From assembly GCA_035495955.1 (NCBI GenBank), contig DATJFE010000082.1:45460-109459 (forward strand): 64,000 bases of DNA, read 5' to 3'. Source of the DNA: Vicinamibacterales bacterium. GTDB taxonomy: Bacteria; Acidobacteriota; Vicinamibacteria; Vicinamibacterales; 2-12-FULL-66-21. A program made the position numbers and the translations under genes. Positions within the stretch are counted from its first letter, which is position 1, and each line of letters begins with the position of its first letter. The notes below the pieces were generated by a model. That model was not told where the DNA came from and did no database searches. It worked only from the letters and a program-made list of their open reading frames with translations. This document shows positions 1 to 62,365 of this stretch, one piece after another.

Positions 1-496
1 CGATGTCGACGGACGCGCCACTATTCCGGGTCTGTTCGCCGCCGGAGAAGCCGCGTGCACCGGCGTCCACGGCGCGAATCGCCTCGCGAGCAATTCGCTG
101 CTCGAGGGTCTGGTATTCGGCGCCCGTGCCGGCGTCGCGATGCGGGAAACGGCCTCGACGGCGCCCAGAGCCGCGGAGGTGGCTCTGACGGTGGTCAAGT
201 TCATCCCCGGTTCGGCGAAGAGTTCGCAGGAGCTGGCTCCCGAAACCGCGCGCCGCGTGATGTGGCAGCGCGTCGGGTTATTTCGCAACAAAGCGGGGCT
301 CGACGAGGCTCTTGCGCAATTCGGGGCGCCGGCCGACGGTGAGCCGAGCGTCGTGACTGTCGGCCGTCTCATCGCGCGCGCGGCGCTGCGACGCGAAGAG
401 AGCCGCGGCGGGCATTACAGGCTGGATTTTCCGCAGCGCGACGATGGGCAATGGAAGCGGCGGGTGGCTGAATGCCGAGTGAATGCCGAATGCTGA
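1..496 (+). CDS. nadB: L-aspartate oxidase, C-terminal part (5' end lies outside the window)
   Basis: Frame 2 is open from base 2: DVDGRATIPGLFAAGEAACTGVHGANRLASNSLLEGLVFG, and later ESRGGHYRLDFPQRDD. Both are typical NadB C-terminal motifs. Track ORF 140..496 covers only the part after an internal Met. Confidence 0.85.
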   Translation, partial: DVDGRATIPGLFAAGEAACTGVHGANRLASNSLLEGLVFGARAGVAMRETASTAPRAAEVALTVVKFIPGSAKSSQELAPETARRVMWQRVGLFRNKAGLDEALAQFGAPADGEPSVVTVGRLIARAALRREESRGGHYRLDFPQRDDGQWKRRVAECRVNAEC

Positions 497-505
497 ATGC
501 TGAAG
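468..505. repeat. Tandem heptad array GAATGCC/GAATGCT, about 5 units, spanning the nadB stop and proS start
   Basis: Reads ctgaatgccgagtgaatgccgaatgctgaatgctgaagg. It encodes the nadB tail AECRVNAEC and the first codons of track ORF 497. Confidence 0.8.
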
Positions 506-1987
506 GAATCTATGGCAGAGAAGAGTGCGGAGCAGAACAAGGGGGAGCAGAAGGGCGCCGTGACCGAGATCACGCGACAGTCCGAGAACTTTTCGCAGTG
601 GTATCTCGACGTCGTCCGGCGCGCTGAGCTGGCGGACTACACCGAGGTGAAGGGCTGCATGGCGATCCGTCCGTACGGCTACGCCATCTGGGAACTGATC
701 CAGCAGGCGTTCGATCGGCGGTTCAAGGCGACGGGGCACGTGAATGCGTACTTCCCCCTGTTCATCCCGGCCGGACTCCTGAACAAGGAGAAGGAGCACG
801 TCGCAGGATTCACACCGCAGGTCGCGTGGGTCACCAAAGGGGGCGATGAGGACCTCGCCGAGCCGCTCGCGATCCGTCCCACCTCCGAGGTGATCATCGG
901 GACGCTCTACGCGAAGTGGATCAAGTCGTGGCGCGATTTGCCCGTCCTGATCAATCAGTGGGCGAACGTCGTCCGCTGGGAGAAAGTGACGCGTCCCTTC
1001 CTGCGCACGACGGAGTTCCTGTGGCAGGAGGGGCACACCGCGCACGAGACGGCGGACGAGGCGCAGGAGGAGACGCTGAAAATCCTCGCCCTCTACAAGG
1101 AGTGCGCGGAGAGCGAGCTTGCGATGCCCGTCGTGGACGGGCAGAAGAGCGAGTCCGAGAAATTCGCCGGCGCGTCGCGGACCTACTCCATCGAGGGCCT
1201 GATGGGCGACGGCCGGGCGCTGCAGGCCGGCACGTCGCACAACCTCGGCCAGAACTTCGCAAAGGCGTTCGGCATTCAGTTCCAGGGCCGCGACAAGTCG
1301 CTCCAGCATGCATGGACGACGTCGTGGGGCGTGTCCACGCGGCTGGTGGGCGGCGTGATCATGACGCACGGCGATGACAACGGATTGATCCTGCCGCCGA
1401 GGATCGCTCCTTATCAGGTCGTGATCGTGCCGATTCCGCGCGGCAACTGGCAGGAGACCGTGCTCCCGAAAGCGCGGGAACTGAAGGCCGCGCTCGAGGC
1501 GCGCGGCCTCCGCGTGTTTCTCGACGATCGCGATTCGCAGACGCCCGGATGGAAATTCGCCGAGTGGGAGCTCCGCGGCGTTCCCCTGCGGATGGAGCTC
1601 GGCCCGAAGGATCTCGAAAAGTCGGCCGTCATGGTGGCGCGGCGCGACACCCGGACGAAGGAGTCGATGCCGATGGAAGGCCTGGCGGAGGCGGTCGCGG
1701 CGAAGCTGGAGGAGATCCAGCGCGCGCTGTTCCAGCGCGCGCTGACGTTCCGCGACGAGCACACGACGCGCGTGAGCTCCTATGAGGAGTTCAAGAGCGT
1801 CATGGAGGGGCGCCCGGGATTCGTCATCGCCGGCTGGTGCGGGAGCGACGAGTGCGAAGCGCAGATCAAAGCCGATACGCAGGCCACCCTGCGGAACATT
1901 CCGTTCGGCGGCGCAGACGTCAAGGGAAAGTGCGTCCGGTGCGGCCGCCCCTCGCCGTCGGAAGCGTGGTTCGCCAAATCGTACTGA
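497..1987 (+). CDS. proS: Proline--tRNA ligase (archaeal/eukaryote-like type, no editing insertion)
   Basis: 496 aa. N-terminus has ENFSQWYLDVVRRAELADYTEVKGCMAIRPYGYAIWE. Class II motifs and C-terminal zinc-type CxxC...CVRCG are present. The true start may be the second Met at about 512. Confidence 0.9.
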   Translation: MLKESMAEKSAEQNKGEQKGAVTEITRQSENFSQWYLDVVRRAELADYTEVKGCMAIRPYGYAIWELIQQAFDRRFKATGHVNAYFPLFIPAGLLNKEKEHVAGFTPQVAWVTKGGDEDLAEPLAIRPTSEVIIGTLYAKWIKSWRDLPVLINQWANVVRWEKVTRPFLRTTEFLWQEGHTAHETADEAQEETLKILALYKECAESELAMPVVDGQKSESEKFAGASRTYSIEGLMGDGRALQAGTSHNLGQNFAKAFGIQFQGRDKSLQHAWTTSWGVSTRLVGGVIMTHGDDNGLILPPRIAPYQVVIVPIPRGNWQETVLPKARELKAALEARGLRVFLDDRDSQTPGWKFAEWELRGVPLRMELGPKDLEKSAVMVARRDTRTKESMPMEGLAEAVAAKLEEIQRALFQRALTFRDEHTTRVSSYEEFKSVMEGRPGFVIAGWCGSDECEAQIKADTQATLRNIPFGGADVKGKCVRCGRPSPSEAWFAKSY

Positions 1988-1992
1988 CGTCG

Positions 1993-2056
1993 ACAATGCC
2001 GAATGCTGGATACCGAATGCCTAAAGAAGCATTGTCAGCATTCGTCATTCGGCATC
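1993..2056. repeat. Inverted GAATGCC/GGCATTC heptad arrays forming an imperfect hairpin just after the proS stop
   Basis: Left arm is caatgccgaatgctggataccgaatgcc and right arm is gcattgtcagcattcgtcattcggcat. atgccgaatg pairs with cattcggcat. Confidence 0.7.
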
Positions 2057-2066
2057 CGGCTTTCAT

Positions 2067-3452
2067 GTGAAGCACCGTCAGCTCCGCGCGGCCCTGGGAG
2101 TTCTTGCGTGCGTGCTGACGGCGCTGCTCTACCAGCAAACGCTCGACCACCCGTTCGTGTTCGACGACCGCGCGGCGGTTCTGCTGAATCCGTCGTTGAT
2201 TGACGCGTGGAGCCTCCGCGCCGCGCTGCTGCTCAATCCCGCGCGGTCGGTCGTGAATCTGTCGTTTGCCCTCGATCGCGCCTTCTGGGGCTTCAGCTCG
2301 TTCGGCTACCACATCACCAACGGCATCCTGCACGTCGCCGTGGTGGGTCTCTTCTTCGGCTTCTGCACGCGCGCGCTGGCAGATGCCCGACCGAGAGACC
2401 AAGGGACGCGGGACCAAGGGACCCGGGACCAAGGGACCCGGGACCAAGGGACCGACTGGCCGGCGTTTTTCGCAGCCGCCGTGTTCGGCGTGCACCCGCT
2501 GATGTCGTCGACAGTACTGTATGTCGCCGCCCGATCCGATCTCCTGTGCGCGGCGGGTTTTCTGCTGGCGCTGATCGTCGCCAGGCGCGCGATTGCGAGT
2601 TCGAGCGCGGCCGCCGGTCTGTGTGCCGTTATGTGCGGCTTGTTCGCGCTTGCGTCGGGCCCCGCGGCCGCCGGCCTGCCAATCGTCGTCCTCGCGTTCG
2701 ATGCGTGGATCCTCCGCGATCGAGGATGGCGCCGCCGGGCGACGCGGGTCTACGTGCCCGCCATGGCGGCGATCGCGGTGGCGGGCGCATGGCAGGCACG
2801 GGCGGTGCTCGGCGCGAATCGGGTGCCGCCGCGCGGGCTGTTCGCGAACCTGCTGACCGAGTCGGTCGTGATCTGGCGGTACGTGCGGCTCCTGGTGGCG
2901 CCGTACGGGCAGTCGATGATCCACGACGTCCACTGGGCGCGCTCACCGGTCGATCCGCTCGGCGTCTGCGCCATCGCGCTCCTGGCCATCTCGATTGTGG
3001 CGGCCGTCCGGATCAGGCACGCGCGCCCGCTGGTCGCGTTCGGCGTCGTCTGGTTCGCCGCGGCGCTGGCGCCGACGTCGACCATTTTTCCGCTTCGAGA
3101 CGCAATGTCGGAGCCTCGCGCGTACCTTGCCGCCGCCGGATTGTTTCTTGCCGCCGCGTCGATGCTCGCGCATCCCCTTGCCTCGAGCCGCGTGGCTCGG
3201 GCGATCGCCGTCGGGGCGCTCGTCCTGTGCGGCGCCTCGACCCTCGCGCGGACGCGCGTGTGGGACGACCCGCTGGCGCTGTGGAAGGAAGCGATCGATC
3301 GCGCGCCGGGATCGTGGCAGGCGCATCTGGGCTATGCCGACGCCCTGCGCGAAGTCGACCAGTGCGGGCCCGCGAAGGAGGAGTACCGGACCGCGCTGCG
3401 GCTTTATCCCGCGAATGCGGACGCTCGAAGCGGATTGGAGCGCTGCCCGTAG
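2067..3452 (+). CDS. Multi-pass membrane protein with C-terminal TPR repeats (PMT/TMTC-like glycosyltransferase family candidate)
   Basis: GTG start. Several hydrophobic helices, and FGYHITNGILHVAVVGLFF resembles the YHxxNxxLH motif of TMTC/PMT_2-type proteins. C-terminal TPR-like WQAHLGYADALREVDQCGPAKEEYRTALRLYPANADA. Confidence 0.6.
   Translation: MKHRQLRAALGVLACVLTALLYQQTLDHPFVFDDRAAVLLNPSLIDAWSLRAALLLNPARSVVNLSFALDRAFWGFSSFGYHITNGILHVAVVGLFFGFCTRALADARPRDQGTRDQGTRDQGTRDQGTDWPAFFAAAVFGVHPLMSSTVLYVAARSDLLCAAGFLLALIVARRAIASSSAAAGLCAVMCGLFALASGPAAAGLPIVVLAFDAWILRDRGWRRRATRVYVPAMAAIAVAGAWQARAVLGANRVPPRGLFANLLTESVVIWRYVRLLVAPYGQSMIHDVHWARSPVDPLGVCAIALLAISIVAAVRIRHARPLVAFGVVWFAAALAPTSTIFPLRDAMSEPRAYLAAAGLFLAAASMLAHPLASSRVARAIAVGALVLCGASTLARTRVWDDPLALWKEAIDRAPGSWQAHLGYADALREVDQCGPAKEEYRTALRLYPANADARSGLERCP
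2395..2453 (+). repeat. In-frame 15-nt tandem repeat x4 (gggaccaagggaccc) encoding (RDQGT)4
   Basis: Reads gagaccaagggacgcgggaccaagggacccgggaccaagggacccgggaccaagggacc, translated PRDQGTRDQGTRDQGTRDQGTD in a predicted loop of the membrane protein. Confidence 0.9.
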
Positions 3453-9195: not shown

Positions 9196-9197
9196 AG

Positions 9198-9246
9198 GGG
9201 TTCCTGGGTTCCGAGGTTCTGGTTCCGAAGGGTTCCAGGGTTCCGG
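9198..9246. repeat. Direct array of GGTTCC-based 6-10 nt units immediately after the ctp stop
   Basis: Reads ggttcctgggttccgaggttctggttccgaagggttccagggttccgg. Confidence 0.8.
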
Positions 9247-9379
9247 CGACATGGTTCGCAAACCGGGCCCGAGATCGAGAACGCCGGAGTGCCGAGTGCC
9301 GACGTTGGGCACTGACCCTATTACTTGTGCCGGTAGATTGTGCTTGCCCTAGGTATGGGGCATTGTTAGACTGACCGCC

Positions 9380-12500: not shown

Positions 12501-13297
12501 AGGCATCGCTCGACGAAATTGCCGCGGAAGTCGATCAGATGGAGCGCGCTGGGCAGTTGGCCAGTCCCAGGGCCGTCGAAGACGCGCCCGAGCCGGCGGA
12601 AATCGAGGAGGGCGAAGTCCCGGCGGAGCCGGCGGCGGCCGCCCCGGCCCGGGCCCTGACGCCGGACGAAATGGTCGCCGACCTCCGCGCGAAGATCGAC
12701 CGCATGGGCGCCGTCAACATGATGGCGATCGACCAGTTCGACGATCTCGAATCGCGCCACACGTTCCTGACCGCGCAGCGCAAGGACCTCGTGGACTCGA
12801 TCGCCGCGACCAACGACGCCATCCGCAAGATCGACAAGACGACGCGCGAGCGATTCCACGAAGCGTTCACCGTCATCAACCGGAACTTCGAAGCCACCTT
12901 CACGACGCTGTTCGGCGGCGGCAAGGCCGGCCTCGTACTGCTCGATGAAAGCGACGCGCTCGAGAGCGGGATCGACATCATCGCGTCGCCTCCGGGAAAA
13001 CGGCTGCAGAGCATCCAGTTGCTCTCGGGCGGCGAGAAGGCGCTCACCGCGATGGCCCTGATGTTCGCGATCTTCAAGTATCGCCCGAGCCCGTTCTGCC
13101 TGCTCGACGAGATCGACGCGCCGCTCGACGATGCGAACATCGGGCGCTTCGTGGAGATGCTCCAGGGCATGCAGGAGCACACGCAGTTCATCCTCATCAC
13201 CCACAACCGGAAGACGATGGAGATCGCCGATCGGCTCTACGGCGTCACGATGGAAGAGCCGGGCGTGTCGAAGCTGATCTCCGTGCAGTTGAACTAA
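9575..13297 (+). CDS. smc: Chromosome segregation protein SMC
   Basis: MRLNRLEIAGFKSFPDRSELAFDTGVTAIVGPNGCGKSNVVDAITWVLGEQS (Walker A), long coiled coils, C-terminal LSGGEKALTAMALMFAIFKYRPSPFCLLDEIDAPLDDAN. Track ORF 9407 has a spurious N-terminal extension. Confidence 0.95.
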   Translation: MRLNRLEIAGFKSFPDRSELAFDTGVTAIVGPNGCGKSNVVDAITWVLGEQSAKSLRGEQMMDVIFQGSDARKPTSAAEVRLRLSGVAARHPGNGNGKAAGVFVEGSPEPAVAVAFALEEESLIVRDVELSRRLYRSGESEYLIDGEVVRLKDVQDLLMDAGVGVKAYAVIEQGKIGQILSARPTDRRQLIEEAAGITKYKSRRRSAELKLEVAQQNLTRVDDIIFEVEKQRGALKRQAAKARRYKRLREELRRWEKVQFAQRYRTLGQVIDAARARLSDARAREAAAAAHLADVETALERLRIELTEADARTTAVREAAHARELSIGRLQQQVVFDKQQIDILASAAAALEAELQGLEARREPAREELAQRREAAARAIGERDRAAAALATEDRAYASATGAIEGLESDVEAARSEVYAAVNAATALRHAMEHASAARARIGEALAKLDVERNDLQVEAQRAADERSAAEDALRRAREAMDTLHVDRAAREGELAGARHGREALGRGIRTREHDLAAARARLKSLEELDAARAEYGDGARMILADSAGAVRHLGSVADYIEVGKPHERAVDAAAGDLLQHVVVRTHEDAAEGLAFARERGAGRVAFVVAESTPSSLSVPGPSVPGPSGAMLNAVLQVSGPAAEVIRALFANTFVADAREDAREFASSTGATVVTVGGDVFRGAHVVEGGQRGEARSILTTKREIKELRERAEAEDVALARMREEAGGLDVAIAAAESAIASLQAELHRQEKAIVGFELQAGGAIEASERVERKQQQIAVERRSAEEELRSQERREEEARHSIQRIETEQRVADEQLSMAQRRLFEAREAAASQARVTAEAKAVHAALVERSSALATDVQRLEHAALELEARMSARSDERERNVARREELRVAIVESERHLDEDVRTFDGLKDQVRAADEASQAIRAQFEAQEVTIRAARRQLEAVREEASHLEVQRATAESDLTHLAAACADTVQASLDEIAAEVDQMERAGQLASPRAVEDAPEPAEIEEGEVPAEPAAAAPARALTPDEMVADLRAKIDRMGAVNMMAIDQFDDLESRHTFLTAQRKDLVDSIAATNDAIRKIDKTTRERFHEAFTVINRNFEATFTTLFGGGKAGLVLLDESDALESGIDIIASPPGKRLQSIQLLSGGEKALTAMALMFAIFKYRPSPFCLLDEIDAPLDDANIGRFVEMLQGMQEHTQFILITHNRKTMEIADRLYGVTMEEPGVSKLISVQLN
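11425..11459 (+). repeat. In-frame duplicated atcggtccctgg unit inside smc (encodes SVPGPSVPGPS)
   Basis: Reads atcggtccctggtccatcggtccctggaccgtcgg. The motif is the reverse complement of the core of the 2395..2453 repeat. Confidence 0.75.
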
Positions 13298-13347
13298 CCG
13301 ACAACCGATAACCGACAAGGACACCCGACACCCGACACCCGATAACC
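13296..13347. repeat. Heptad array AACCGA/CACCCGA just after the smc stop
   Basis: Reads aaccgacaaccgataaccgacaaggacacccgacacccgacacccgataaccg, followed by the small hairpin aaccgta-caacccac-tacggtt. Confidence 0.8.
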
Positions 13348-13366
13348 GTACAACCCACTACGGTTC

Positions 13367-45416: not shown

Positions 45417-45490
45417 GGGCTTTGGACTTTGGGCTTTGGGCGTTGGGCTTTAGGTTTGGGCATGTCGACGAGAGCCCAGCGCCCAAAGCC
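45417..45490. repeat. GGGCTTT heptad array plus inverted arm forming a 17-bp hairpin in the rpsO-pnp spacer
   Basis: ggctttgggcgttgggc (about 45432..45448) pairs with gcccagcgcccaaagcc (45474..45490) with one mismatch. Confidence 0.8.
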
Positions 45491-45756
45491 TACTTACGAA
45501 TACCGAGACGCTTGATCAGTTCCGCGTAGCGGTCCGTATCTTTCCGTTTGAGGTAATCGAGGAGACGGCGGCGCTGGCCTACGAGCTTCAGCAGCCCGCG
45601 CCGCGAGTGATGGTCCTTCGCGTGCGCCTTGAAATGTTCCGTCAGATAGCTGATCCGCTCGCTCAGGAGCGCGACCTGTACTTCAGGGGATCCGGTGTCG
45701 CCGCTATGGGTCGCGTAGCTGCCAATGACTTCCGTCTTGCGGTCCTTGCTTAGCAC
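45490..45756 (-). CDS. rpsO: 30S ribosomal protein S15
   Basis: GTG start with ggaggg [51 protein letters not shown]. Confidence 0.95.
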
Positions 45757-45846
45757 GATGTGCCCTCCACGCACGGCCCAGACATGTCGGAGCGGGATGC
45801 TCCGCACCAGGCCGCCGTTGCCCGTATTCCTAAACGGTTCAATATT

Positions 45847-47799: not shown

Positions 47800-48172
47800 C
47801 TGATCCGGCGGGCTTCGCCCGAGAGCTCTCTTCCGCCTTCAGCTCCTGGAGGATCTGCTCGATCCGGTCGTGCCGGGCGATGGACTCGTCGTAGAAGAAC
47901 TCGAGCTCAGGCGCCCGGCGCAGCCGGATGCGCTGGGCGATCTGCCGGCGCAGAAACGGCGTCGCTCGCCTCAGCGCCCGCACCGTCTCGCGCCGCGCCG
48001 CCTCGTCGCCCATCGTCGTGTAATACACGCGCGCGAGCTGCAGGTCCGAGGTCACCTTCACCTTCGTGAGCGTGAGGAAGCCGATCCCGGGGTCGTGCAC
48101 GTCGCGCCCGAGAAGCGTCGACAGCTCGTCCCGGATGGCCTCGCCGACGCGCTCGGGACGGTTAGAAGACAC
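47771..48172 (-). CDS. rbfA: Ribosome-binding factor A
   Basis: GTG start. RVGEAIRDELSTLL...LTLTKVKVTSDLQLARVYY. Confidence 0.9.
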   Translation of the reverse strand: MSSNRPERVGEAIRDELSTLLGRDVHDPGIGFLTLTKVKVTSDLQLARVYYTTMGDEAARRETVRALRRATPFLRRQIAQRIRLRRAPELEFFYDESIARHDRIEQILQELKAEESSRAKPAGSVDDDPDRDA

Positions 48173-48175
48173 TTG

Positions 48176-48253
48176 TCAATGCTGAATGCCGAATGCCGAA
48201 TGCCGAACCGAGGCAATCATGAGAGCGCTCTGCCATTCGGCATTCAGCATTGA
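48176..48253. repeat. GAATGCC heptad hairpin (about 21-bp stem) between infB and rbfA
   Basis: tcaatgctgaatgccgaatgcc (48176..) is the reverse complement, 21 of 22, of tgccattcggcattcagcattga (48231..48253). Confidence 0.85.
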
Positions 48254-48260
48254 TGTGACC

Positions 48261-51038
48261 TCACGCGGTGGCCGCGACCCGCTCGACCACGAAAGCTTCG
48301 ATGATGTCGCCGACCTTGACGTCGTTGTATTTCTCGAAGCCGATGCCGCACTCGAAGCCCGCCTTCACCTCGGACACGTCGTCCTTGAAGCGGCGGAGCG
48401 AGCCGATCTTGCCCTCGTGGACGACGACGTTGTCGCGAAGCAGGCGCGCCTGCGTGTCGCCCGAGCGCGTGATGCGCCCTTCGGTGACCATGCAGCCGGC
48501 GATGGTGCCGAACTTCGGCACCTTGAAGGTTTCGCGCACTTCGGCGCTGCCGATGCGCACTTCCTTCAGCGTCGGCTCGAGCAGCCCCGTCATCGCCTTC
48601 TTCATCTCGTCGACCACGTTGTAGATGACGGAGTGCAGGCGGATGTCGACCTTGTCGCGGTCGGCCACGTCTGCGGCGTTGCGATCGGGCCGGACGTTGA
48701 AGCCGATGACGATCGCGTTCGACGCCGCAGCGAGCAGGACGTCGGACTCGTTGATCGCGCCGACTCCGCTGTGGATGATCCGGATCTTCACGCGCTCGTC
48801 GCTCATCTTCGTCAGCGTGTCGGCGAGCACCTCGGCCGATCCCTGCACGTCGGCCTTGATGATGATCGGCAGCTCCTTCATGCCGCCTTCCGCGATCTGC
48901 GCCTGCAGCGACTCGAGCGTCAGCCGCGCGCCCTTCGCGCCGAGCGCCTTGTCCTTCGCCTGCATCTGGCGGTACTGGGCGATCTGGCGCGCCTTGGCGG
49001 CGTCGGCGAGCGCCTGGAAGGCGTCGCCCGGCTGCGGCAGGCCGCCGAGGCCCAGCACTTCCACGGGCGTCGCCGGCGGCGCGGCCTTGATCGACTTCCC
49101 CCGGTCGTCGATGATCGCGCGGACCTTGCCGACGATCGTGCCGGCGATGAGCATATCGCCGACGTGGAGCGTGCCGTCCTGGACGAGGATGGTGGCCACC
49201 GGCCCGCGACCCTTGTCGAGCTTTGCTTCGAGCACCGTGCCCGACGCGTTGCGCATCGGGTTCGCCTTCAGCTCGCTCAGCTCGGTCACGAGGAGGATCA
49301 TTTCGAGCAGCGCCGGAATGTTCTCCCGTTTCTTCGCGGACACCGGCACGGTCACGGTCTGGCCGCCCCAGTCTTCCGGCACGAGCCCGAGATCCGACAG
49401 CTCCTTCTTCACGCGATCCTGGTTCGCGTTGGGCTTGTCGATCTTGTTGATCGCGACGACAATCGGGACGCCGGCCGCCTTCGCGTGATCGATCGCCTCT
49501 TTCGTCTGCGGCATCACGCCGTCGTCGGCCGCCACCACGAGGACCACGACGTCGGTGACACGGGCCCCGCGGGCGCGCATCATCGTGAACGCTTCATGGC
49601 CAGGCGTGTCGAGGAAGACCACATTCCGATCGCCGACCTGAACGGCATACGCGCCGATATGCTGGGTGATGCCGCCGGCCTCGCGTTCGGCGACGCGCGT
49701 CTCGCGGATCGCGTCGAGCAGGGTCGTCTTCCCGTGGTCGACGTGTCCCATGACCGTGACGACCGGGGCGCGCGTGACGACGTCCTCCGGCTTGGCGTCC
49801 TCCGCCTCGACCTGCAGCAGTTCCTCCTCGAAGGTCTGCATCTTCACGTCGGCGCCGAACTCGCGCGCGATCATCGATGCCGTGTCGGTGTCGAGCGTGC
49901 TGTTGATGGTCATCATCATCCGCTTGTCCATCAACTTCTTGAGCACGTCCTTCGCCTTCACGTCCAGCTTCGTCGCCAGATCCGAGACCGTCATCCCTTC
50001 GGCGAGGGTAATCGTGCGGGTGACGGGCGGCGGCGGCGCGCTGGTCGGAGGCGGGGGCTGGACGCGCGGCTGTTCGCGGCGCGGTCCCGTCGAGCGCGGG
50101 CCTGACGGACGCGGCGGCGGCGGACGGTAGCCGGGGACCTGCGGCCGTCCGGGTTGCGACGGACGTACGGGCTGCGACGGCAGCGGCCTCGGGCCGCCCA
50201 TCGGCGCCTGCGGACGGGGATAGGCGCCGACGCGCGGAGGTCCGCCAGGGCGCGGCGCGGCCGGTGCGCTCGGCCGCGGCGCAGCGGGCTTGCTCAAGTT
50301 GCCGGTTGCCGCGGGCGGCGGCGACGTCGGCTGCGGCGGACGGACGAGAAGCGGACGCCGCGGAGCCGCCGGCGGCGCCTGTCCCGTTTTCGGATCTTCG
50401 ACGCGCAAACGCAGCGTCGGCGGCACGATGCGGCCGGGCACCGAGATCGGACGCGCAGGAACCGGCGGTGCGGCGGTGGGCGGCGGCGCGACGGGTTCAG
50501 GCATCATCGGCGCGGGACGCTCGACCGGCGCGGGCGCGGGCGGCGCGGCGGCTTCCGCCGGCGCCGCATCGACGGCTGCGGCGGGCCGCGCGGATTCCGG
50601 TTCGGGCGCGGGCGCCGAAGGCGCGGCCGGCGGCGGTGCGACTGCGGCAGGTTCGGGCGTCGGAGCCGGAATCGGCTCCGGCGTGAGAGGCGCGGGCATC
50701 GGCTCCGCGGCAACCGCGGGCTTCGCGGTCTTGACGAGCCGTGGCGCTGGCATCGCCGGGGCGGCAGGCTTCGGAGGCTCCGGCGCCCTGCCGCCGCCCG
50801 GTCTCTTCGCGACGCCGCGCGACGCCGGGCCGGGCGTCTCGGCGAAGGCCGCGCTGGACGGCACCTTCATGTTCCGCTGGCGAGCCTGCTTGGTGACGAA
50901 CTCGCGCGCGACGACCTCTTCGATCGTGCTCGACGCGCTCTTTACCTCGATGCCGTGCTCCTTCTTCAAGAGCGACATGACGTCCTGGCTCGTGAGGTTG
51001 AGCAGCTCCGCGACTTTGTAGATCCGAACTGTTGCCAA
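48261..51038 (-). CDS. infB: Translation initiation factor IF-2
   Basis: TTG start. Long Pro/Ala-rich N-terminal region, G domain [30 protein letters not shown]. Confidence 0.97.
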
Positions 51039-51060
51039 AAAAGACCTCTAAAAAACCGAT

Positions 51061-51159
51061 CAACTACCAATGACCAACTCCCAACTAACTGAAGGCGCCG
51101 AGGTTCAGCATCCGGCCTCCCGAGGCACATGTCCTGGGAGTTGGGAGTTGGAAGCTGGG
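51061..51159. repeat. AACTCCC / GGGAGTT inverted heptad arms in the nusA-infB spacer
   Basis: caactaccaatgaccaactcccaactaac ... cctgggagttgggagttggaagctggg, with a loop of about 45 nt. Confidence 0.7.
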
Positions 51160-51167
51160 CGTCGATC

Positions 51168-52412
51168 CTATTCAGCCTTCGCCGGCTCCGACGCCGCGGT
51201 CAGCTCCGCCGCCTGAACGCCGCTTTCGTCGCTCATCGCCTCGCCGGCGGCGGCCGTCTCCGCCTCGCTCGCCTGCGCCGTCGCGTCTTCGGCTGCCGGC
51301 GACTCGGCGCCCTCGGCCGCGGACGCCGGCTCGCCGGCCCCGATTTCAAGCGCGCCGAATTGCGCTTCGACCTCGCGGCGCTTCTCTTCCTCGCTCTTGA
51401 TGTCGATCTTCCAGCCCGTGAGCTTCGCCGCGAGCCGGACGTTCTGACCCTTCTTGCCGATCGCCAGCGACAACTGCTTGTCCTCGACGACCACCTCCAT
51501 CACCTTCTCGGCATCGTCCACGATCGAGACGCGCTGGACCTTCGCGGGGCTGATGGCGTTGGTGACGAAGAGGACCGGATCCTCCGACCATTCGACGATG
51601 TCGATCTTCTCGCCGCGAAGCTCACGGATGATCGACTGCACGCGCGTGCCCTTCATGCCCACGCAGGCGCCGACGGGATCGACATCGCGCTCGCGCGAGT
51701 AGACCGCCACTTTGGCGCGGTCGCCCGCCTCACGCACGGCCCCGCGGATCATGACGGTGCCGTCGTAAATCTCAGGCACCTCCTGCTCGAACAGCTTGAT
51801 CAGCAGGGCAGGATCCGTGCGCGACAGAACGATCTGGGGTCCCTTCGCGCTGCGGTTGACGCCGCGAATGACGGCGCGGACGCGGTCGCCCACGGCGTAG
51901 TTCTCGGCGCGCGACTGTTCCTTGCGGGGGAGCTGCGCCTCGATGCGCCCCAGTTCCATGATGATGTCGCCGTTCTCGAAGCGCTTGACGACGCCGCTGA
52001 CGACTTCGCCGACGCGGTTGCTGTACTCCGCATAGACGTTCTCCCGCTCGGCCTCGCGGACCTTCTGGAAGATCACCTGCTTTGCCGTCTGCGCGGCGAT
52101 GCGTCCGAGATCCTCGGTAGGACGCGGAAACTCGATCTCCATGTCCACCTCGGCCTCGTCGCCGTAGAGCTGCTGCGCCTCGACCAGCGAGATCTGATTC
52201 GCCGGATCGGTGACGTCTTCGACGATGCGCTTCACGGCACAGAGCTCGATCTGACCGGTCTCGGTGTTGAATCGGGCGCGCAGCGTCTCGTTCTTGTAGC
52301 GCTTCCGGGCGGCCGCCTCGATGGCGTCCTGCACCGCGCCGATGATGATCTCGGGCTCGACGCCCTTTTCCTTCGCGATGGCGTCGATCTGCTGTAACAG
52401 CGGATTCTGCAT
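51168..52412 (-). CDS. nusA: Transcription termination/antitermination factor NusA
   Basis: S1 (GEVVSGVVKRFENGDIIMELG), two KH (DPVGACVGMKGTRVQSI, AIGKKGQNVRLA), acidic C-terminal tail. Confidence 0.95.
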   Translation of the reverse strand: MQNPLLQQIDAIAKEKGVEPEIIIGAVQDAIEAAARKRYKNETLRARFNTETGQIELCAVKRIVEDVTDPANQISLVEAQQLYGDEAEVDMEIEFPRPTEDLGRIAAQTAKQVIFQKVREAERENVYAEYSNRVGEVVSGVVKRFENGDIIMELGRIEAQLPRKEQSRAENYAVGDRVRAVIRGVNRSAKGPQIVLSRTDPALLIKLFEQEVPEIYDGTVMIRGAVREAGDRAKVAVYSRERDVDPVGACVGMKGTRVQSIIRELRGEKIDIVEWSEDPVLFVTNAISPAKVQRVSIVDDAEKVMEVVVEDKQLSLAIGKKGQNVRLAAKLTGWKIDIKSEEEKRREVEAQFGALEIGAGEPASAAEGAESPAAEDATAQASEAETAAAGEAMSDESGVQAAELTAASEPAKAE

Positions 52413-52429: not shown

Positions 52430-52885
52430 CTAAAACTCCACATCGAGGTTGGCGCGCTTGATCGTGTCGAGCGGCACCCGATGCGTCCGTCGTCCTTCTT
52501 CCAATACCACCGCGCCGGCGTCGACGCCCCGGATCCTTCCCGCGAACGCGCTCTGGCGTCCGATCGGCTCGCGCGTCACGATTTTCGCCAGCCGGCCCGC
52601 GAACCGCCTGTAGTCCGCTTCGTGCCGGAGGGGGCGGTCCAGCCCGGGCGACGAAACCTCGAGCGTGTACCGCTCGCCGAGCTCCTGCTGGCCAAACTCG
52701 TCTTCCACGTCGAGCAGGGCGCTGAGGTCGTGGCTCACGCGCTGGCAGTCTTCGATCCCGACGGCGGCCTCCGGCGGCTCGACTCCGCCCGGATCGGGTC
52801 GGTCGATCACGACCCGGAGCACCATCCCAATGGGCTCGCGCCGGAGCTGCACGTCGAAGATCTCGAGCCTATGGCTGCGCGCCAC
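52430..52885 (-). CDS. rimP: Ribosome maturation factor RimP
   Basis: LEVSSPGLDRPL core motif, position upstream of nusA. Confidence 0.85.
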   Translation of the reverse strand: MARSHRLEIFDVQLRREPIGMVLRVVIDRPDPGGVEPPEAAVGIEDCQRVSHDLSALLDVEDEFGQQELGERYTLEVSSPGLDRPLRHEADYRRFAGRLAKIVTREPIGRQSAFAGRIRGVDAGAVVLEEGRRTHRVPLDTIKRANLDVEF

Positions 52886-52945
52886 CCGCTCGGCGGCACC
52901 CCTCAGCCGCGTGAGTTCTTCAATTCGTGCCGTATTCCTGTCCTG

Positions 52946-52973
52946 AAAAACAAAAAGTGGGCAACCGGCCCAC
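52946..52973 (-). terminator. Intrinsic terminator/attenuator in the rimP-nusA leader
   Basis: Minus strand reads gtgggccggttgcccac followed by tttttgttttt. It lies between a TATACT -10 box (53006..53011) and the rimP start. Confidence 0.65.
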
Positions 52974-53005
52974 TGTCTGGAGAACCCCCGCGCCTACCAC
53001 CAAAC

Positions 53006-53085: not shown

Positions 53086-54477
53086 TCAAGCGGAAGGAGT
53101 GACGAGCAGATCGTAGCCCCGCGCCCCAACGATGCGCGCGCGGATGAGGTCGCCGCTGCTGAACTGCGACGGGTCGCAATCGGTCAGATAGACGACGGGA
53201 TCGATGTCGGGCGCCTGTCCTTCGAGCCGCCCCTGCAACACCAGATCGTGCTCGGCGGACGGACCGTCGACCAGGACGTCGACGTCCGTGCCGACCCGGC
53301 CCTTCTGCCGTCTGGCGACGATCCGCTGCTGCCGCTTCATGATGCGATCGCGGCGGCGCCGCTTCACTGCGGCGGGAACGTCATCTTTCACCTGGTACGC
53401 CCGGGTCCCTTCCTCGTGCGAATACGTGAATACGCCGACATGATCGAACTGCGTGTCTTCGACGAACCGCTCCAGCTCGCCGAACTCCTCCTCGGTCTCG
53501 CCGGGGAAGCCGGCGATGAAGGTGGTGCGCAGCGTCACGCCAGGCACGCGGTCGCGGATGCGCGCCAGGAGCGCATCGTACGTCTTGCGGCTGCCCGGCC
53601 GCCGCATCCGTTTGAGAACGGCCGCCGAGGCGTGCTGCAGCGGCAGGTCGACGTAGCGGCAGACCTTCTCGCATTCCGCCATCGCCGAGAGCACGTCATC
53701 GGTGATGGTGGTCGGATACAGATAGAGCAGGCGAATCCATTCGAGGCCGTCGACGCCGTTCAATTCGCGCAGGAGCGCGGCCAACGCGCCTCGCTCACCC
53801 CGATCGATGCCGAAGAACGTCGTGTCCTGAGAGATGAGGAGAAGCTCCTTCGTTCCGCGCTCGGCGAGCGCGCGGGCTTCGGCCACAATCGATTGCCGCG
53901 TGCGGCTGCGATACTCTCCGCGCAGCGTCGGGATGATGCAGAACGCGCAGGTGTAGTCGCAGCCTTCTGCGATCTTGACGTAGGCGAAGTGCTGCGGCGT
54001 GGTGAGCACGCGCGGCGTCGACGTGTCGTAGAGGTAAGTGGGGAGGGGTCGGGTAGCGGATTTCGGGTGTCGGATGAATCTCATTGGAACGGCATCCAAC
54101 ACCCGATCCCCGACACCCGACCCCTGACACCCGACACCCGATATCGCTTCTACGATGCCCGGAATCTCGCCCGTTCCCAGGATCGCGTCGATCTCCGGGA
54201 TCTCCTTGATCAGTTCCTCGCGATACCGCTCCGCCAGACAGCCGGTCACGACCAGGCGCGACGCGCTGCCGTCGCGTTTCTGCTGCGCCATTTCGAGGAT
54301 GGCGTCGATCGATTCCTGCTTGGCGCGGTCGATGAAGGCACAGGTGTTGACGACGAGCACGTCGGCGTCCTCCGCCGCGGCGGTGATCTCGTGACCCGCC
54401 TGCCGGGCGTATCCCAGCATCACTTCGCCGTCGACGAGGTTCTTCGGACAGCCCAGCGAGACGAAACCTATCTTCAT
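53086..54477 (-). CDS. rimO: Ribosomal protein S12 methylthiotransferase RimO
   Basis: [18 protein letters not shown], radical-SAM CDYTCAFCIIP, C-terminal TRAM domain. The start overlaps the asnS stop by 1 nt (TAATG). Confidence 0.9.
   Translation of the reverse strand: MKIGFVSLGCPKNLVDGEVMLGYARQAGHEITAAAEDADVLVVNTCAFIDRAKQESIDAILEMAQQKRDGSASRLVVTGCLAERYREELIKEIPEIDAILGTGEIPGIVEAISGVGCQGSGVGDRVLDAVPMRFIRHPKSATRPLPTYLYDTSTPRVLTTPQHFAYVKIAEGCDYTCAFCIIPTLRGEYRSRTRQSIVAEARALAERGTKELLLISQDTTFFGIDRGERGALAALLRELNGVDGLEWIRLLYLYPTTITDDVLSAMAECEKVCRYVDLPLQHASAAVLKRMRRPGSRKTYDALLARIRDRVPGVTLRTTFIAGFPGETEEEFGELERFVEDTQFDHVGVFTYSHEEGTRAYQVKDDVPAAVKRRRRDRIMKRQQRIVARRQKGRVGTDVDVLVDGPSAEHDLVLQGRLEGQAPDIDPVVYLTDCDPSQFSSGDLIRARIVGARGYDLLVTPSA
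54062..54142. repeat. CACCCGA/TCGGGTG heptad hairpin plus direct array lying in frame inside rimO
   Basis: tcgggtgtcggatg (54063..) pairs with catccaacacccga (54093..). This is followed by tccccgacacccgacccctgacacccgacacccgata. It encodes SGVGCQGSGVGDRVLDAVPMRFIRHPK in the linker between the MTTase N-domain and the radical-SAM domain. Confidence 0.8.
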
Positions 54478-59368: not shown

Positions 59369-59378
59369 GTCTGGCGTG

Positions 59379-59460
59379 CCAATCGCCAATCATCAATCCG
59401 TCGATCGGCACTCGCCAATCGTCAATGACAATCGTCACCCTGCAATCGCCACTCGCCGAT
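59379..59460. repeat. Direct array of about 11 degenerate CAATCGC heptads
   Basis: Reads ccaatcgccaatcatcaatccgtcgatcggcactcgccaatcgtcaatgacaatcgtcaccctgcaatcgccactcgccgat. Confidence 0.8.
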
Positions 59461-59461
59461 G

Positions 59462-61039
59462 TCAGCGCTTTGTCATGGTGACGAAGACGTTGTTGCCGTC
59501 GCGCCAGAGGAGCATGAAGGCGGGCTGACCGCCCTGCACTTTCTGCAGCTCGCGCGTCACCTGGCTCACGTTCGCGACCTTCTGGCGATTCACCTCGAGA
59601 ATCACGTCGCCGGGGACGACGCCGGCGTTCGCGGCCGGGCTGTTGCGCTCGACGTCGCTGACGATCGCGCCGCCGCCGTTCGAGGGCAGGTCGAGGCGCC
59701 GCGCGAGCTCGGGCGTCAGCGCATCGAGCGTCATGCCGAAGCTGGTCGCGGACGGCTCCGGCGCGGCCTGGTTCGGCGTACCGCCGCCGCGGCGCGCCAC
59801 GCGCGACTGCTCGGCGTCGACGTCGAGCTCGTCAATGGTGACGTTCAGCGACCGACGCTTGTTGTCGCGGTAGATCACGACGGGTACGGTCGTTCTCGGC
59901 TTCGTGTTGACGACCAGGGCGACGAGCGCATCGCTGTCCTTGATCGCCTTGCCGTTGAACTCGACCACGACGTCGCCGGGCTGGATGCCGGCCTTATCGG
60001 CCGGGCCGTTGGGATTGACCGTGGCGATGAGCGCGCCGCTCGTGTCGGGCAGGCCGAACGCCTTCGCGGTTTCCGGCGCGAAGTGCTCTCTCGATACCGT
60101 CACGCCGATCACGCCGCGCACGACCTTACCGTTGCGGAGTTGGGGCAGCAGGTCGCGGATCGCGTTCATCGGCGTCGCGAAGCCGATGCCGATGTTCGCG
60201 GAGCGCTGATCGGTGTAAATCGCCGTGTTCATGCCGACGACTTCGCCCCGGACGTTGAGCAGCGGGCCGCCGGAATTGCCGGGATTGATCGCGGCGTCGG
60301 TCTGCAGCATGTTCTGCTCGCGCCCCGGCACGCCGAAGGGGCGGCCGAGCGCGCTGATGACGCCCACGCTGACGCTGTGACCGAGATGGAAGGGGTTCCC
60401 GATCGCCATGACCCAGTCGCCGGGCTGCATCTGATCGGAGTCGCCGAACTTGATCTCGCTGAGGGGATGGTGCGGCGTTTCCGTCAGCTGAATCAGCGCG
60501 CTGTCGGTCAGCGTATCGTGGCCGACCACCTTGGCCGCGTAGGATTCATTGCGCTCGGCGCCGTAGAAACTGACGCGGATCGTTTCCGCGCCGTCGATGA
60601 CGTGATTGTTGGTCAGGATGAACCCGGCCCGATCGATAACGAATCCCGTGCCCGCGCCTTCCAGGACGGGCTCCTGCTGCCGCGGTCCGCGATTGCGTCC
60701 ACGCGTCGGCGGGGACTGCGGGTCCTCTCCGCCGAAGAAGCGCCGCAGGAGATCGTCGCCGCCTCCGCCGTTGCCGAAGTACTCGGTCAGATCGCGCCCG
60801 CGCTGCCGCACTTCGGTCTGGATGTTGACGACCGCCGGGGCGTTGTTCTTCGCGATATTCCGGAATGTGGTCGCGTCGATCGCCCCTGTCAGCGGCGCGC
60901 TGTTGATCGGCGGGATCGACACGGTCTGCGCCGACGAGGAGGGGGTCAGATCCAGGCGCGAGGCGATGACCATGCCGACAGCCATGGACGCGACCGCGAT
61001 GAGAACCACATAAAATGCCGAAGTCTTGCGGGTGGACAT
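59462..61039 (-). CDS. htrA: Do/DegP/HtrA family serine endoprotease with two PDZ domains
   Basis: TNNHVI, DSALI, GNSGGPLLN catalytic triad motifs. Two PDZ domains (ADKAGIQPGDVVVEFNG, AANAGVVPGDVILEVN). Confidence 0.9.
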   Translation of the reverse strand: MSTRKTSAFYVVLIAVASMAVGMVIASRLDLTPSSSAQTVSIPPINSAPLTGAIDATTFRNIAKNNAPAVVNIQTEVRQRGRDLTEYFGNGGGGDDLLRRFFGGEDPQSPPTRGRNRGPRQQEPVLEGAGTGFVIDRAGFILTNNHVIDGAETIRVSFYGAERNESYAAKVVGHDTLTDSALIQLTETPHHPLSEIKFGDSDQMQPGDWVMAIGNPFHLGHSVSVGVISALGRPFGVPGREQNMLQTDAAINPGNSGGPLLNVRGEVVGMNTAIYTDQRSANIGIGFATPMNAIRDLLPQLRNGKVVRGVIGVTVSREHFAPETAKAFGLPDTSGALIATVNPNGPADKAGIQPGDVVVEFNGKAIKDSDALVALVVNTKPRTTVPVVIYRDNKRRSLNVTIDELDVDAEQSRVARRGGGTPNQAAPEPSATSFGMTLDALTPELARRLDLPSNGGGAIVSDVERNSPAANAGVVPGDVILEVNRQKVANVSQVTRELQKVQGGQPAFMLLWRDGNNVFVTMTKR

Positions 61040-61045
61040 TAGAAA

Positions 61046-61090
61046 ACTCCCAAACTCAACTCAACTCAACTCCCAACTCCCAACTCCCAA
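61046..61090. repeat. AACTCCC/AACTCAA heptad array between the htrA start and the M24 stop
   Basis: Reads aactcccaaactcaactcaactcaactcccaactcccaactcccaa. Confidence 0.85.
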
Positions 61091-61093
61091 GGG

Positions 61094-62272
61094 TCAGAGA
61101 AGAACGAATTCGCGTTGAAGCGGTCCGCTGACAGTCGCCTCGCGCTCGCCGATGAACATGTTGATCTCGGTCCGGACGCCGAATTCCTTGCCATACACGC
61201 CGGGCTCGATCGTGAATCCCGTGCCTGGAATCAGACGGCGCTCGTCGTGCGTCTCGTAGTCGTCCATGTGCACGCCGTTGCCGTGCACTTCGGTGCCGAG
61301 ACTGTGTCCGGTCCGGTGGATGAATTGCGATCCGAATCCCGCGCGCTCGATCACCGCGCGGCACGCGCGATCGACCTCGTAGCCGCGCAGCTCGCGCCCT
61401 GCCGACACCGCGTCCTGCACGAGGGTGACGGCGGCGTCGCGGGCATCGCGCGCCGCATTGAAGGCCCGTACGTAGCGCTCGGGCACCTGGTCGGCCGTGA
61501 AGCCCACCCAGGTGATGTCCGCAAAGACCGCGCCGGGCTGCGGAAGCTTCCCCCACAGGTCGAGCAGGAGGACCTCGTTCGCGCCGATGGCTCGCGGCCT
61601 GGCCGCGGTCGGCATGTAATGCGGGTTGCCCGCATTCTCCTGCGCGGCGACGACGGGCGGGGCATCGGTGACGAGCCCTTCGTCGCCGAACCAACCGGTC
61701 ATCGCGCTCTGGACGTCGAGCTCGGTCAGGCTCCGTCCCTGTTTTCGCGCGTCGCGCACGAAATTGAAGGCGCGATCCTTGATCCGGTACAGCGCATCCG
61801 AAGCCGTCCGGTGCGTCGTCAGGGCGTCGGCCGACCAGACAGCCTCGAAGCGCTGGACGAGATCGCCCGATGAGACGACTTCGGCTCCGGTTTTCCGGAC
61901 AGCCTCGACCGTGCCGGCGTCGACGCGTGAGATGTATGGGATCGCGTTGCCGGGTGAGTACTCCATGGCCACGCGTTTGAGCCCACCGAGCACGTGCGCG
62001 AGGCCGGATGCGAGCGTGTCGCGCTGCGAGTAGATCGTTTTCCCGCCCGGCAAGTGATCGAGATTGAAGGGCTCGATCGCGTGAACGAGCTTCTGCGGCT
62101 CGCCGCTGGCCGGAATGACGTAGTACCACCGGCGAGTGGTCATCTTGCCGGCCATGTCGAGACCCGTCAGCCGCCTGGCAATCGGGTTCGATCCGTGGAA
62201 ATCGTACAGGACCCAGCCGTCCAGCCCATCTTCTTTGAGGGCGCTCTGGACCGCCGGAATCGACAAGGCCAT
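61094..62272 (-). CDS. M24 family metallopeptidase (Xaa-Pro aminopeptidase-like)
   Basis: FIHRTGHSLGTEVHGNG, GFTIEPGVY, TEINMFI (pita-bread metal ligands). Only the last 392 codons of track ORF 61094..63928 are real. Confidence 0.85.
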   Translation of the reverse strand: MALSIPAVQSALKEDGLDGWVLYDFHGSNPIARRLTGLDMAGKMTTRRWYYVIPASGEPQKLVHAIEPFNLDHLPGGKTIYSQRDTLASGLAHVLGGLKRVAMEYSPGNAIPYISRVDAGTVEAVRKTGAEVVSSGDLVQRFEAVWSADALTTHRTASDALYRIKDRAFNFVRDARKQGRSLTELDVQSAMTGWFGDEGLVTDAPPVVAAQENAGNPHYMPTAARPRAIGANEVLLLDLWGKLPQPGAVFADITWVGFTADQVPERYVRAFNAARDARDAAVTLVQDAVSAGRELRGYEVDRACRAVIERAGFGSQFIHRTGHSLGTEVHGNGVHMDDYETHDERRLIPGTGFTIEPGVYGKEFGVRTEINMFIGEREATVSGPLQREFVLL

Positions 62273-62278
62273 GGATTG

Positions 62279-62284
62279 AGTATA
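62279..62284 (-). promoter_or_regulatory. TATACT -10 box 6 nt upstream of ATG 62272 (leaderless candidate)
   Basis: Minus strand reads cttacgtcTATACTcaatccATG, with no SD. Confidence 0.45.
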
Positions 62285-62315
62285 GACGTAAGGGCCGCCA
62301 AAACGGATGGGTTGA

Positions 62316-62365
62316 GGGGGTGTCGGGTGTCGGGTGTCGGGTGTCGGGGTTGGGAGTTGGGAGTG
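62316..62365. repeat. GGGTGTC x4 followed by GGGAGTT x2 heptad arrays in the divergent M24/VWA spacer
   Basis: Reads gggggtgtcgggtgtcgggtgtcgggtgtcggggttgggagttgggagtgg. Confidence 0.9.

Follow-up and report, generated by a model that had tools for sequence, protein, structure and literature searches.

Heptanucleotide tandem arrays and their inverted pairs in the spacers and protein linkers of a Vicinamibacterales genome

Tandem arrays of 7-nt units, many of them arranged as inverted pairs, recur along a 64,000-nt stretch of DNA from a soil bacterium of the Vicinamibacterales (contig DATJFE010000082.1, positions 45,460 to 109,459), which we analysed as a whole and refer to as the window. An excess of 7-nt repeats in bacteria has been noted since 2007, and to our knowledge no cause or function has been accepted for it. 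The G+C content of the window is 65-68%, and its genes (NusA, IF2, SMC, ProRS and others) were identified using Pfam and NCBIfam. The nearest neighbours of its NusA among GTDB species representatives are all metagenome-assembled genomes of Vicinamibacterales (Acidobacteriota), and a match to an acidobacterial VWA-domain family agrees with this placement. The DNA of the window itself had no exact counterpart among the GTDB representative genomes. A conserved minus-strand operon holds five of the array loci noticed first and consists of rimO (53086-54477; TIGR01125 equivalog, 515.9 bits), rimP (52430-52885), nusA (51168-52412), infB (48261-51038), rbfA (47771-48172), an nrnA-like gene (46795-47799), truB (45847-46785), rpsO (45490-45756) and pnp (43197-45377). 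Translation of rpsO most likely begins with the GTG at 45756, and the 88-residue product has an exact match in public contigs. No tRNA or tmRNA gene, as a possible mark of an integration site, was found in the window. For comparison we assembled 80 GTDB loci around nusA (1.25 Mb in total), 80 independently obtained metagenome contigs, and a strain-level set of five short contigs that encode an S15 or RbfA protein identical to that of the window.

An ungapped lag-identity scan detected 11 period-7 arrays in the window, compared with a mean of 0.15 in 20 dinucleotide-preserving shuffles. In the same scan, periods 4, 5, 6 and 8-14 gave 0-2 arrays each (at most one at periods 5 and 8), and period 3 gave eight because of the coding sequence. 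Tandem Repeats Finder reported period 7 at 480-504, 2038-2064, 13296-13355, 17382-17424, 17437-17465, 45416-45461, 48178-48207, 51135-51159, 54099-54141, 59378-59457, 61067-61090, 62318-62348 and 62349-62364, and both programs as well as reading of the sequence found at least two 7-nt units standing head to tail. Every array named in a preliminary description of this DNA was recovered with the correct unit and coordinates, and the excess over shuffled sequence is large. Further arrays came to light at 9198-9244 (GGGTTCC), 9287-9302 (GAGTGCC), 13296-13320 (AACCGAC) and 28817-28833 (TTCGGTC), and inside truB at 46273-46300 and 46467-46534 (GCGAGGT and its complement). Altogether the 64 kb contain at least nine unit types, and the units GAATGCC, CAATCGC and AACCGAC carry no G run.

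Spacers account for roughly one tenth of the window and contain ten of about 14 array sites. The arrays usually fill these spacers and therefore abut stop and start codons. The proximity to stop or start codons that had been described for almost all arrays holds at these ten sites but not at 54062-54142, inside rimO, nor for the two truB arrays. Gene boundaries can no longer be regarded as the sole setting, as three sites are intragenic and in frame, namely the rimO linker, truB and the C-terminal tail of an S9 peptidase. At the gathering threshold, Rfam placed no RNA family over the arrays anywhere in the window. The reported lack of a transposase or RAYT gene stands for the approximately 50 window open reading frames (ORFs) that were scanned with Pfam, which are part of the total.

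We folded 12 array loci of the window as RNA on the transcribed strand and expressed their stability as z-scores. Stable hairpins were obtained at seven loci (-27.8 to -52.0 kcal/mol, z -2.4 to -6.0), whereas the other five are direct arrays without a hairpin (z -0.6 to +1.7), so that the arrangement described as usual, inverted arrays able to form hairpins, applies to the former and not to the latter. Within the operon, all on the minus strand, inverted GAATGCY/RGCATTC arrays fill the infB-rbfA spacer (48173-48260; -43.4 kcal/mol, z -6.02) and inverted AACTCCC/GGGAGTT arrays fill the nusA-infB spacer (51039-51167; -52.0 kcal/mol, z -3.46). The long nusA-infB hairpin is followed by GGUUUUUUAG and is the sole heptad hairpin with a U run after it. 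Inverted GGGCTTT/AAAGCCC arrays extend from the rpsO stop codon (45378-45489; -34.7 kcal/mol, z -2.44), with a conserved pnp leader motif downstream of the hairpin. Inside rimO, inverted TCGGGTG/CACCCGA arrays occupy 54062-54142 in frame (folded as 54055-54150; -47.4 kcal/mol, z -3.99), at the position of the linker that joins the UPF0004 domain of RimO to its radical-SAM domain.

The other three hairpins lie elsewhere in the window. Inverted AATGCCG/CATTCGG arrays at 1993-2056 (plus strand; folded as 1988-2066) begin 6 nt past the proS stop and give -27.8 kcal/mol (z -3.39). Inverted CGGAAGG/CCTTCTG arrays at 17381-17466 (folded as 17378-17470) are located between the convergent genes of an M14 carboxypeptidase (plus) and the S9 peptidase (minus) and give -43.4 kcal/mol on the plus and -31.0 kcal/mol on the minus strand, their right arm (17437-17465) being the final 13 codons of the S9 peptidase. 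Degenerate CAATCGC/GCGATTG arrays at 59379-59460 (minus strand; folded as 59385-59465; -29.1 kcal/mol, z -2.67) fill the spacer from the stop of an htrA-like gene (59462) to a CYTH-domain gene. Overall, these folds predict that the palindromes, once transcribed, form RNA hairpins of very high stability at the ends of cistrons.

The five direct arrays are distributed as follows. About four TGAATGC/GAATGCC units at 468-505 (plus strand; folded as 460-512, z +0.86) overlap the stop of a nadB-like ORF (494-496) just upstream of the proS start (ATG at 497 or 512). At 9198-9302 (plus strand; folded as 9196-9320, z -0.60), about six GGGTTCC units with indels and 2.3 GAGTGCC units begin 3 nt past the stop of an S41 protease gene. 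A composite of AACCGAC and ACACCCG, 8.6 units in all (13296-13355, plus strand; folded as 13298-13366, z -0.48), occupies the whole spacer from the SMC stop to the start of an M48 peptidase gene (13367). The array at 61046-61090 (minus strand, sense TTGGGAG/TTGAG; folded as 61040-61093, z +1.71), between the stop of an M24 peptidase gene (61094) and the start of the htrA-like gene (61039), repeats the Shine-Dalgarno-like GGGAG. The composite (GGGTGTC)x4.4 followed by (GTTGGGA)x2.3 at 62316-62365 (plus strand; folded as 62300-62407, z +0.26) lies in the spacer of a divergent gene pair and ends 43 nt before the VWA-domain gene (start 62408). In truB, on the minus strand, an ACCTCGC-type array at 46273-46300 encodes the 10-residue insertion EPRTSHLAPR, which is missing from more distant relatives, and a GCGAGGC/GAGACGT-type array at 46467-46534, in a variable loop, is complementary and inverted to it about 170 nt away.

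A scan for the intrinsic terminator consensus (short GC stem, 3-8 nt loop, U tract) across 43-63 kb flagged no heptad hairpin. The one convincing match in this interval, at 52974-52956 in the rimP leader, is a plain GC hairpin followed by a T run. Upstream of rimP (52900-53000, minus strand) a TATACT-like box precedes AGTGGGCCGGTTGCCCACT and TTTTTGTTTTT, and the terminator-like hairpin is kept in nearly all Vicinamibacterales loci examined; by analogy with NusA autoregulation in model bacteria, it looks like a nusA-operon leader attenuator. Two other conserved stretches occur in spacers of the operon. Directly upstream of the pnp start (45378-45420, minus strand) lies GAAAAGCTGGCGCAGCTCAGACAGAAAGAACTGACAC, which is kept in about ten relatives (L005, L006, L010, L014, L015, L017, L020, L022, L024 and L025) and also in L081 and L082, and which may be a pnp leader element. 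The truB-rpsO spacer (45757-45846, minus strand) contains the conserved segments ACGGCGG..CTGG and CTGGGCCGTGCGTGGAGG, common to most relatives, and may represent an S15 autoregulatory leader.

Arrays of the same kind, built from dozens of different units, are present across the 160 relatives. The 80 GTDB loci contain 168 arrays of period 7, compared with 6 of period 5 and 18 of period 8. Four sites are hot, with 43 arrays in the rimO linker (26 of 67 loci), 16 between rimP and nusA (14 of 79), 20 between infB and rbfA (13 of 51) and 16 between nrnA and truB (10 of 50), and no array was found inside rimP, nusA, rbfA, nrnA, rpsO or pnp in these loci. At rimP-nusA, about 14 relatives have AGCTGAA/GAACTGA-type arrays immediately before nusA; an array of this type is absent from that site in the window. 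The rpsO-pnp spacer of the relatives holds an ordinary GC hairpin or heptad hairpins of six different units, or is too short for any hairpin, and heptad hairpins thus appear able to replace ordinary gene-end hairpins. At the sites of the window's hairpins, many relatives have spacers of 15-30 nt and no hairpin.

The RimO linker is the richest of the intragenic sites. Inverted heptad arrays of other units occupy it in 60 of 140 relatives, and the independent metagenome contigs repeat the result, with 49 linkers carrying a period-7 array and 43 an inverted stem. Across the 140 unique linkers we counted 57 distinct units in 26 clusters, a modal array length of four units, and no in-frame stop. 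Arrays are present in both halves of 42 linkers, and in 34 of these the units of the two halves are reverse complements. The intragenic copies are genuine in-frame insertions and not assembly errors. A minimal, array-free linker of 43 residues (VPEILGAIAPSATPLTFYTKAPGTLPTYIYDADTPR) occurs in L088, L090 and L092, and the linker reaches up to 111 residues in L001. Its centre, PLTF(F/H)R or IPLLRSNGEP, is conserved and is flanked by two variable arms.

Comparison of close relatives indicated that the arrays are stable between strains and turn over between species. Unit number was unchanged at 98.2-99.9% nucleotide identity in the infB-rbfA, rpsO-pnp and two truB arrays, with few point changes, and the infB-rbfA hairpin was identical in three strains at 98.6-99.9% identity. 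In the relative L081 (93.8% identity), the rpsO-pnp hairpin is built from the same unit and is about 25 nt longer, the extra sequence being spread over both arms, and it folds with -51 against -33 kcal/mol. In the same relative an unrelated spacer of about 50 nt stands in place of the 88-nt infB-rbfA hairpin. Array turnover is far faster than that of the flanks, and between related species site and type are kept while length varies, as at rpsO-pnp. No exact match to the window's RimP is on record, the best hit of a metagenome scan for close relatives had 81% protein identity, and the GTDB locus pairs above 90% identity (L049, L060, L061) contain no arrays.

The units themselves are highly diverse, with at least 60 clusters among the relatives. 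The degenerate heptad GGSNNTY, which had been put forward as a family consensus, fits 20% of the relatives' array units versus 7.3 +/- 1.8% of shuffled units, a bias that is real but too weak to serve as one. Runs of three or more G or C occur in about 33% of units versus 21% in shuffles. The earlier observation that a unit recurs at distant sites, for which local slippage offers no explanation, is borne out beyond chance. Separate sites of one genome share units within one mismatch in 39 pairs, compared with 15.7 +/- 3.8 in permutations, and identical units in 17 pairs, compared with 2.7. We rejected the idea that the reused units are simply common genomic words, as their single-copy frequency outside arrays is 0.73-1.19 of expectation. 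Some unit clusters occupy several non-orthologous sites across the clade; CAGCATT, which equals the window's GAATGCY, is found at six site types in 18 loci.

Searching 185,579 species genomes for (GAATGCY)x3.9 returned at least 120 matches in many phyla, and so did the scrambled control (GGACTAY)x3.9. Because arrays of the scrambled heptad are likewise widespread across phyla, the window's units have no special status, and we dropped GAATGCY as a special cross-phylum unit. Among the matches listed, 130 GAATGCY arrays of other phyla have no inverted partner versus 18 that have one, and frequent inverted pairing is thus a trait of the lineage, as it is in Xanthomonas. The control heptad GGACTAY forms an adjacent inverted pair in a Blastocatellia genome (L306, 7714-7779), and inverted heptad pairs therefore exist in another acidobacterial class too.

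We then turned to the stems and asked whether their pairing is maintained in RNA or in DNA. Folding of whole regions favoured, if anything, the antisense over the sense strand (mean +3.7 kcal/mol), a noisy comparison as the coding flanks are included, and it was replaced by counting mismatch types in the stems, of which about 86% of positions are Watson-Crick pairs. Selection for pairing in the transcript would be expected to leave mainly G·U mismatches in the sense strand. The counts were 51 G·U and 55 A·C (p = 0.77) for the 44 unique stems from intergenic regions of the operon, and 53 G·U and 118 A·C (p = 7e-7) for the 60 unique stems of the rimO linker. Since G·U is not above A·C, there is no selection for sense-RNA pairing, and within the rimO coding sequence the surviving mismatches are of the type that makes the sense mRNA stem weaker. 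Base composition at the four-fold degenerate sites of these genes is balanced between the strands (A 102, T 117, G 1035, C 1077), and mutational strand asymmetry therefore does not account for the A·C excess in rimO. The two arms agree inside each genome but not from one genome to the next, which indicates that they evolve in concert at the DNA level. Template switching during replication is known to create long stems and to keep their arms paired (PMC8794818).

On balance, and with somewhat better than even confidence, we favour an explanation in which 7-nt slippage and inverted template switching at the DNA level fill tolerated DNA with arrays, any effects of the mRNA hairpins being a by-product. 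Slipped-strand replication in a 7-nt register would expand a unit to an array, most often of about four units, and fold-back or intra-strand template switching would copy this array into a nearby inverted partner. Continued template switching would keep the arms complementary, so that they evolve in concert while the unit drifts between lineages. Arrays would build up where extra DNA is tolerated, filling short spacers whole, and in disordered protein segments such as the RimO linker, the TruB loops and the peptidase tail only in-frame versions would survive. Secondarily, the hairpins probably influence read-through or the stability of mRNA 3' ends, but they would not be the cause of arm pairing. 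The specificity for period 7, the arbitrary units, the concerted arms and the lack of selection for sense-RNA pairing all speak for this explanation, as do the in-frame arrays in rimO and truB, the interchange of ordinary and heptad hairpins at rpsO-pnp and the strong folds in the window. The joint lengthening of both rpsO-pnp arms in the relative at 94% identity also supports it.

Several points weigh against this explanation. It leaves the preference for 7 nt without account; a polymerase footprint of that size is a conjecture, as quoted in PMC4692102 and PMC4679880. Slippage and fold-back explain neither the reuse of units at separate sites of a genome nor the clade-wide repertoire exemplified by CAGCATT. 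No slippage or template-switch event was seen directly, unit number being constant among the closest strains, and the mismatch test draws on one operon. Finally, the persistence of the hot sites across the order (rimO linker, rimP-nusA, infB-rbfA, nrnA-truB) fits selection equally well.

Such selection is the core of the alternative that the hairpins are RNA elements resembling REP/BIME or attenuators, acting in exonuclease protection or partial termination, with heptads as the mode by which the stem grows. Most hairpins start 0-8 nt past a stop codon between co-directional genes, their positions recur across the order, their predicted stability is high (z down to -6.0), a U run follows the one between nusA and infB, and some hairpin, ordinary or heptad, is present at rpsO-pnp in most relatives. 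However, the G·U and A·C counts are balanced in the intergenic stems and reversed inside rimO, which is not the pattern of a structured functional RNA stem, and sense folds are no stabler than antisense ones. Five of the 12 folded loci are hairpin-free, many relatives do without a hairpin in the short spacers at the same sites, and the infB-rbfA hairpin was swapped for unrelated sequence at 94% identity, and the sole canonical terminator of the 43-63 kb interval is the plain GC hairpin of the rimP leader. We therefore consider selected RNA elements an unlikely origin of the arrays, even though individual hairpins may work like REP/BIME.

The reuse of units bears on another alternative, active copy-and-paste or templated spread through inter-locus template switching, gene conversion or an enzyme, which would make the arrays a mobile microsatellite with a unit repertoire specific to each genome. 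Unit sharing exceeds permutations by 2.5-fold (within one mismatch) to 6-fold (identical units), single copies of the shared units show no excess elsewhere than in arrays, and unit clusters appear at several non-orthologous sites. Different units abut in the composite arrays at 62316-62365 and 13296-13355, and two genomes at 94% identity differ by the replacement of an entire spacer. On the other hand, sites with the same unit have no common flanks, terminal repeats or target duplications, the ORFs scanned contain neither a transposase nor a RAYT, each clade holds dozens of units and not one element, arbitrary heptads form arrays in many phyla, and neither a copy-number change nor a new insertion was seen at 98-99.9% identity. 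This origin seems to us distinctly doubtful. The boldest form of it, for which we hold out equally little expectation, rests on unit sharing beyond the reach of local slippage: the heptad DNA would be self-propagating, its units being copied between distant sites and installed as inverted pairs even in rimO, and persisting across the order as the sequence turns over. If true, this would be a mobile palindromic microsatellite without element-encoded boundaries, and it could explain the heptanucleotide excess of bacteria.

Even less probable is that the arrays are platforms for a single-strand binder with a 7-nt footprint, for instance a cold-shock-domain protein, or for G-quadruplexes, tuning translation or transcription near starts and stops. 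A footprint with one CspB molecule to each heptamer is quoted in PMC4679880. Some arrays stand immediately before starts (468-505, 61046-61090 and rimP-nusA in about 14 relatives), some units carry the Shine-Dalgarno-like GGGAG, about one third have a G or C run of at least three versus 21% when shuffled, and the mode of four units matches the Xanthomonas repeats, for which G-quadruplex folding was shown in vitro (PMC4692102). The unit diversity is nevertheless too great for one specific binder, most units have no G runs, and the presence of both orientations and self-complementary pairs would sequester the single strands. Contingency (phase-variation) loci, at which one 7-nt unit more or less would put rimO or truB out of frame or alter promoter or Shine-Dalgarno spacing and so switch genes on or off, are scarcely credible here, as strains at 98.2-99.9% identity agree in unit number at all four comparable arrays, the neighbouring genes have housekeeping roles, and 140 of 140 rimO linkers are in frame.

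The window arrays are a new lineage's version of a known and mechanistically unexplained kind of repeat, and their occurrence is beyond chance. The preliminary description had not recognised the architecture; both heptanucleotide repeats and convergent inverted pairs have in fact been described before (PMC4692102, PMC4679880). According to the summaries in these two papers of Mrazek et al. (2007), intergenic heptanucleotide repeats are over-represented in bacteria with large, high-GC genomes. The searchable papers contain no mention of heptad repeats in Acidobacteria. The closest known case is Xanthomonas GGGAATC (GGGNATC), whose 186 arrays in Xcc include 70 convergent pairs and mostly lie no more than 50 bp from a stop or start, with a mode of four units and with site and type kept between species as length and sequence vary (Rehm et al. 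2015, PMC4692102; this paper also covers Nostoc GGGGA(C/T)T). The arrays described here share with it tandem 7-nt units in a high-GC genome, a non-coding excess located mostly between co-directional ORFs, numerous convergent inverted pairs with the potential to fold into stem-loops, and the mode of four units. GGGATCC/GGGGATC-type units are 3.6-5 fold over shuffled sequence in the relatives, many of them from one orthologous site. In contrast to Xanthomonas, with one dominant G-rich unit of at least four G-tracts and a G-quadruplex account, we find at least nine units in the window and dozens in the clade, most of them without G runs, as well as recurrent in-frame arrays in a protein linker; an analysis of mismatch symmetry is not reported for Xanthomonas.

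As far as the simple sequence repeats of Mrazek et al. are summarised in the papers cited above, the likeness extends to the over-representation of period 7, the mainly intergenic position and the many unrelated units. Direct TAACTGA repeats, present in marine Beggiatoaceae, cyanobacteria and Bacteroidetes as 2-6 copies right upstream of starts (PMC4679880), recall the AGCTGAA/GAACTGA-type arrays upstream of nusA, and 15 units of the relatives are within one mismatch of TAACTGA versus 3.9 expected. Unlike TAACTGA, a single heptamer with almost no inverted copies, the present arrays comprise many units, and the window has none at rimP-nusA. The heptamers of the cyanobacterial short tandemly repeated repetitive (STRR) sequences were reportedly described by Mazel et al. 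in 1990. A difference is that inverted pairs are common in Vicinamibacterales, whereas the GAATGCY arrays of other phyla are mostly single. The hairpins of PMC8794818 likewise have long, near-perfect stems whose arms change together and are replaced faster than by point substitution, but they come from eukaryotic rRNA and other RNAs without tandem units.

REP/BIME are imperfect palindromes at gene 3' ends or between cistrons of enterobacteria and pseudomonads, where they are present in many copies and can stabilise upstream mRNA. The present hairpins differ in that they have no common consensus of 20-40 nt apart from the 7-nt unit, their stems are internally periodic, arrays also occur inside genes, same-unit sites have unrelated flanks, and each genome carries many units. 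CRISPR arrays have repeats of 23-50 nt and unique spacers, and the present units are 7 nt long and contiguous. Miniature inverted-repeat transposable elements, Correia and ERIC are equally inapplicable, as nothing is shared beyond the unit, there are no edge duplications and no Rfam family matches. The preliminary description was thus right to set the arrays apart from REP/BIME, ERIC, Correia and CRISPR.

Some features of the window lie apart from this argument. The minor array at 28817-28833 (TTCGGTC x2.4, no strand assigned) falls in a stretch of about 2.3 kb (26835-29115) with lower G+C and poor third-position coding signal, where the sole recognisable ORF is CarboxypepD_reg-like (27271-27996, minus strand) and Rfam gave no matches in 26800-29150 down to E = 0.1. 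At 2397-2453 (plus strand), a 15-nt repeat (GACCAAGGGACCCGG x3.8) lies in frame inside ORF 2067-3452, which has weak TPR matches, and encodes a 5-residue repeat; Tandem Repeats Finder also assigns it period 7-8. An Rfam match to 5_ureB_sRNA (39811-40106, plus strand; 72.2 bits) runs antisense to the gene for the urease alpha subunit (38546-40252, minus strand), which belongs to a urease cluster with ureD, ureG and the genes of the beta and gamma subunits. This match probably reflects conservation of the coding sequence and not a genuine sRNA.

The present work provides a clade-wide catalogue of heptad arrays and their hot sites, among them the rimO linker, and combines strain-level stability and species-level turnover with an argument from mismatch symmetry. 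For annotation, the message is that such elements are ordinary for the clade. Annotators and those searching for RNA motifs should be cautious, as apparent "covariation" could lead to hairpins of this kind being mislabelled as terminators or structured RNAs, and the strand-symmetric mismatches argue that they can be products of DNA-level processes and not selected RNA structures. With its many units, many inverted pairs and hot sites in a conserved operon, the lineage is an unusually rich comparative system, and the site in rimO, a gene of an essential pathway, allows frame constraint, arm complementarity and mismatch spectra to be read together.

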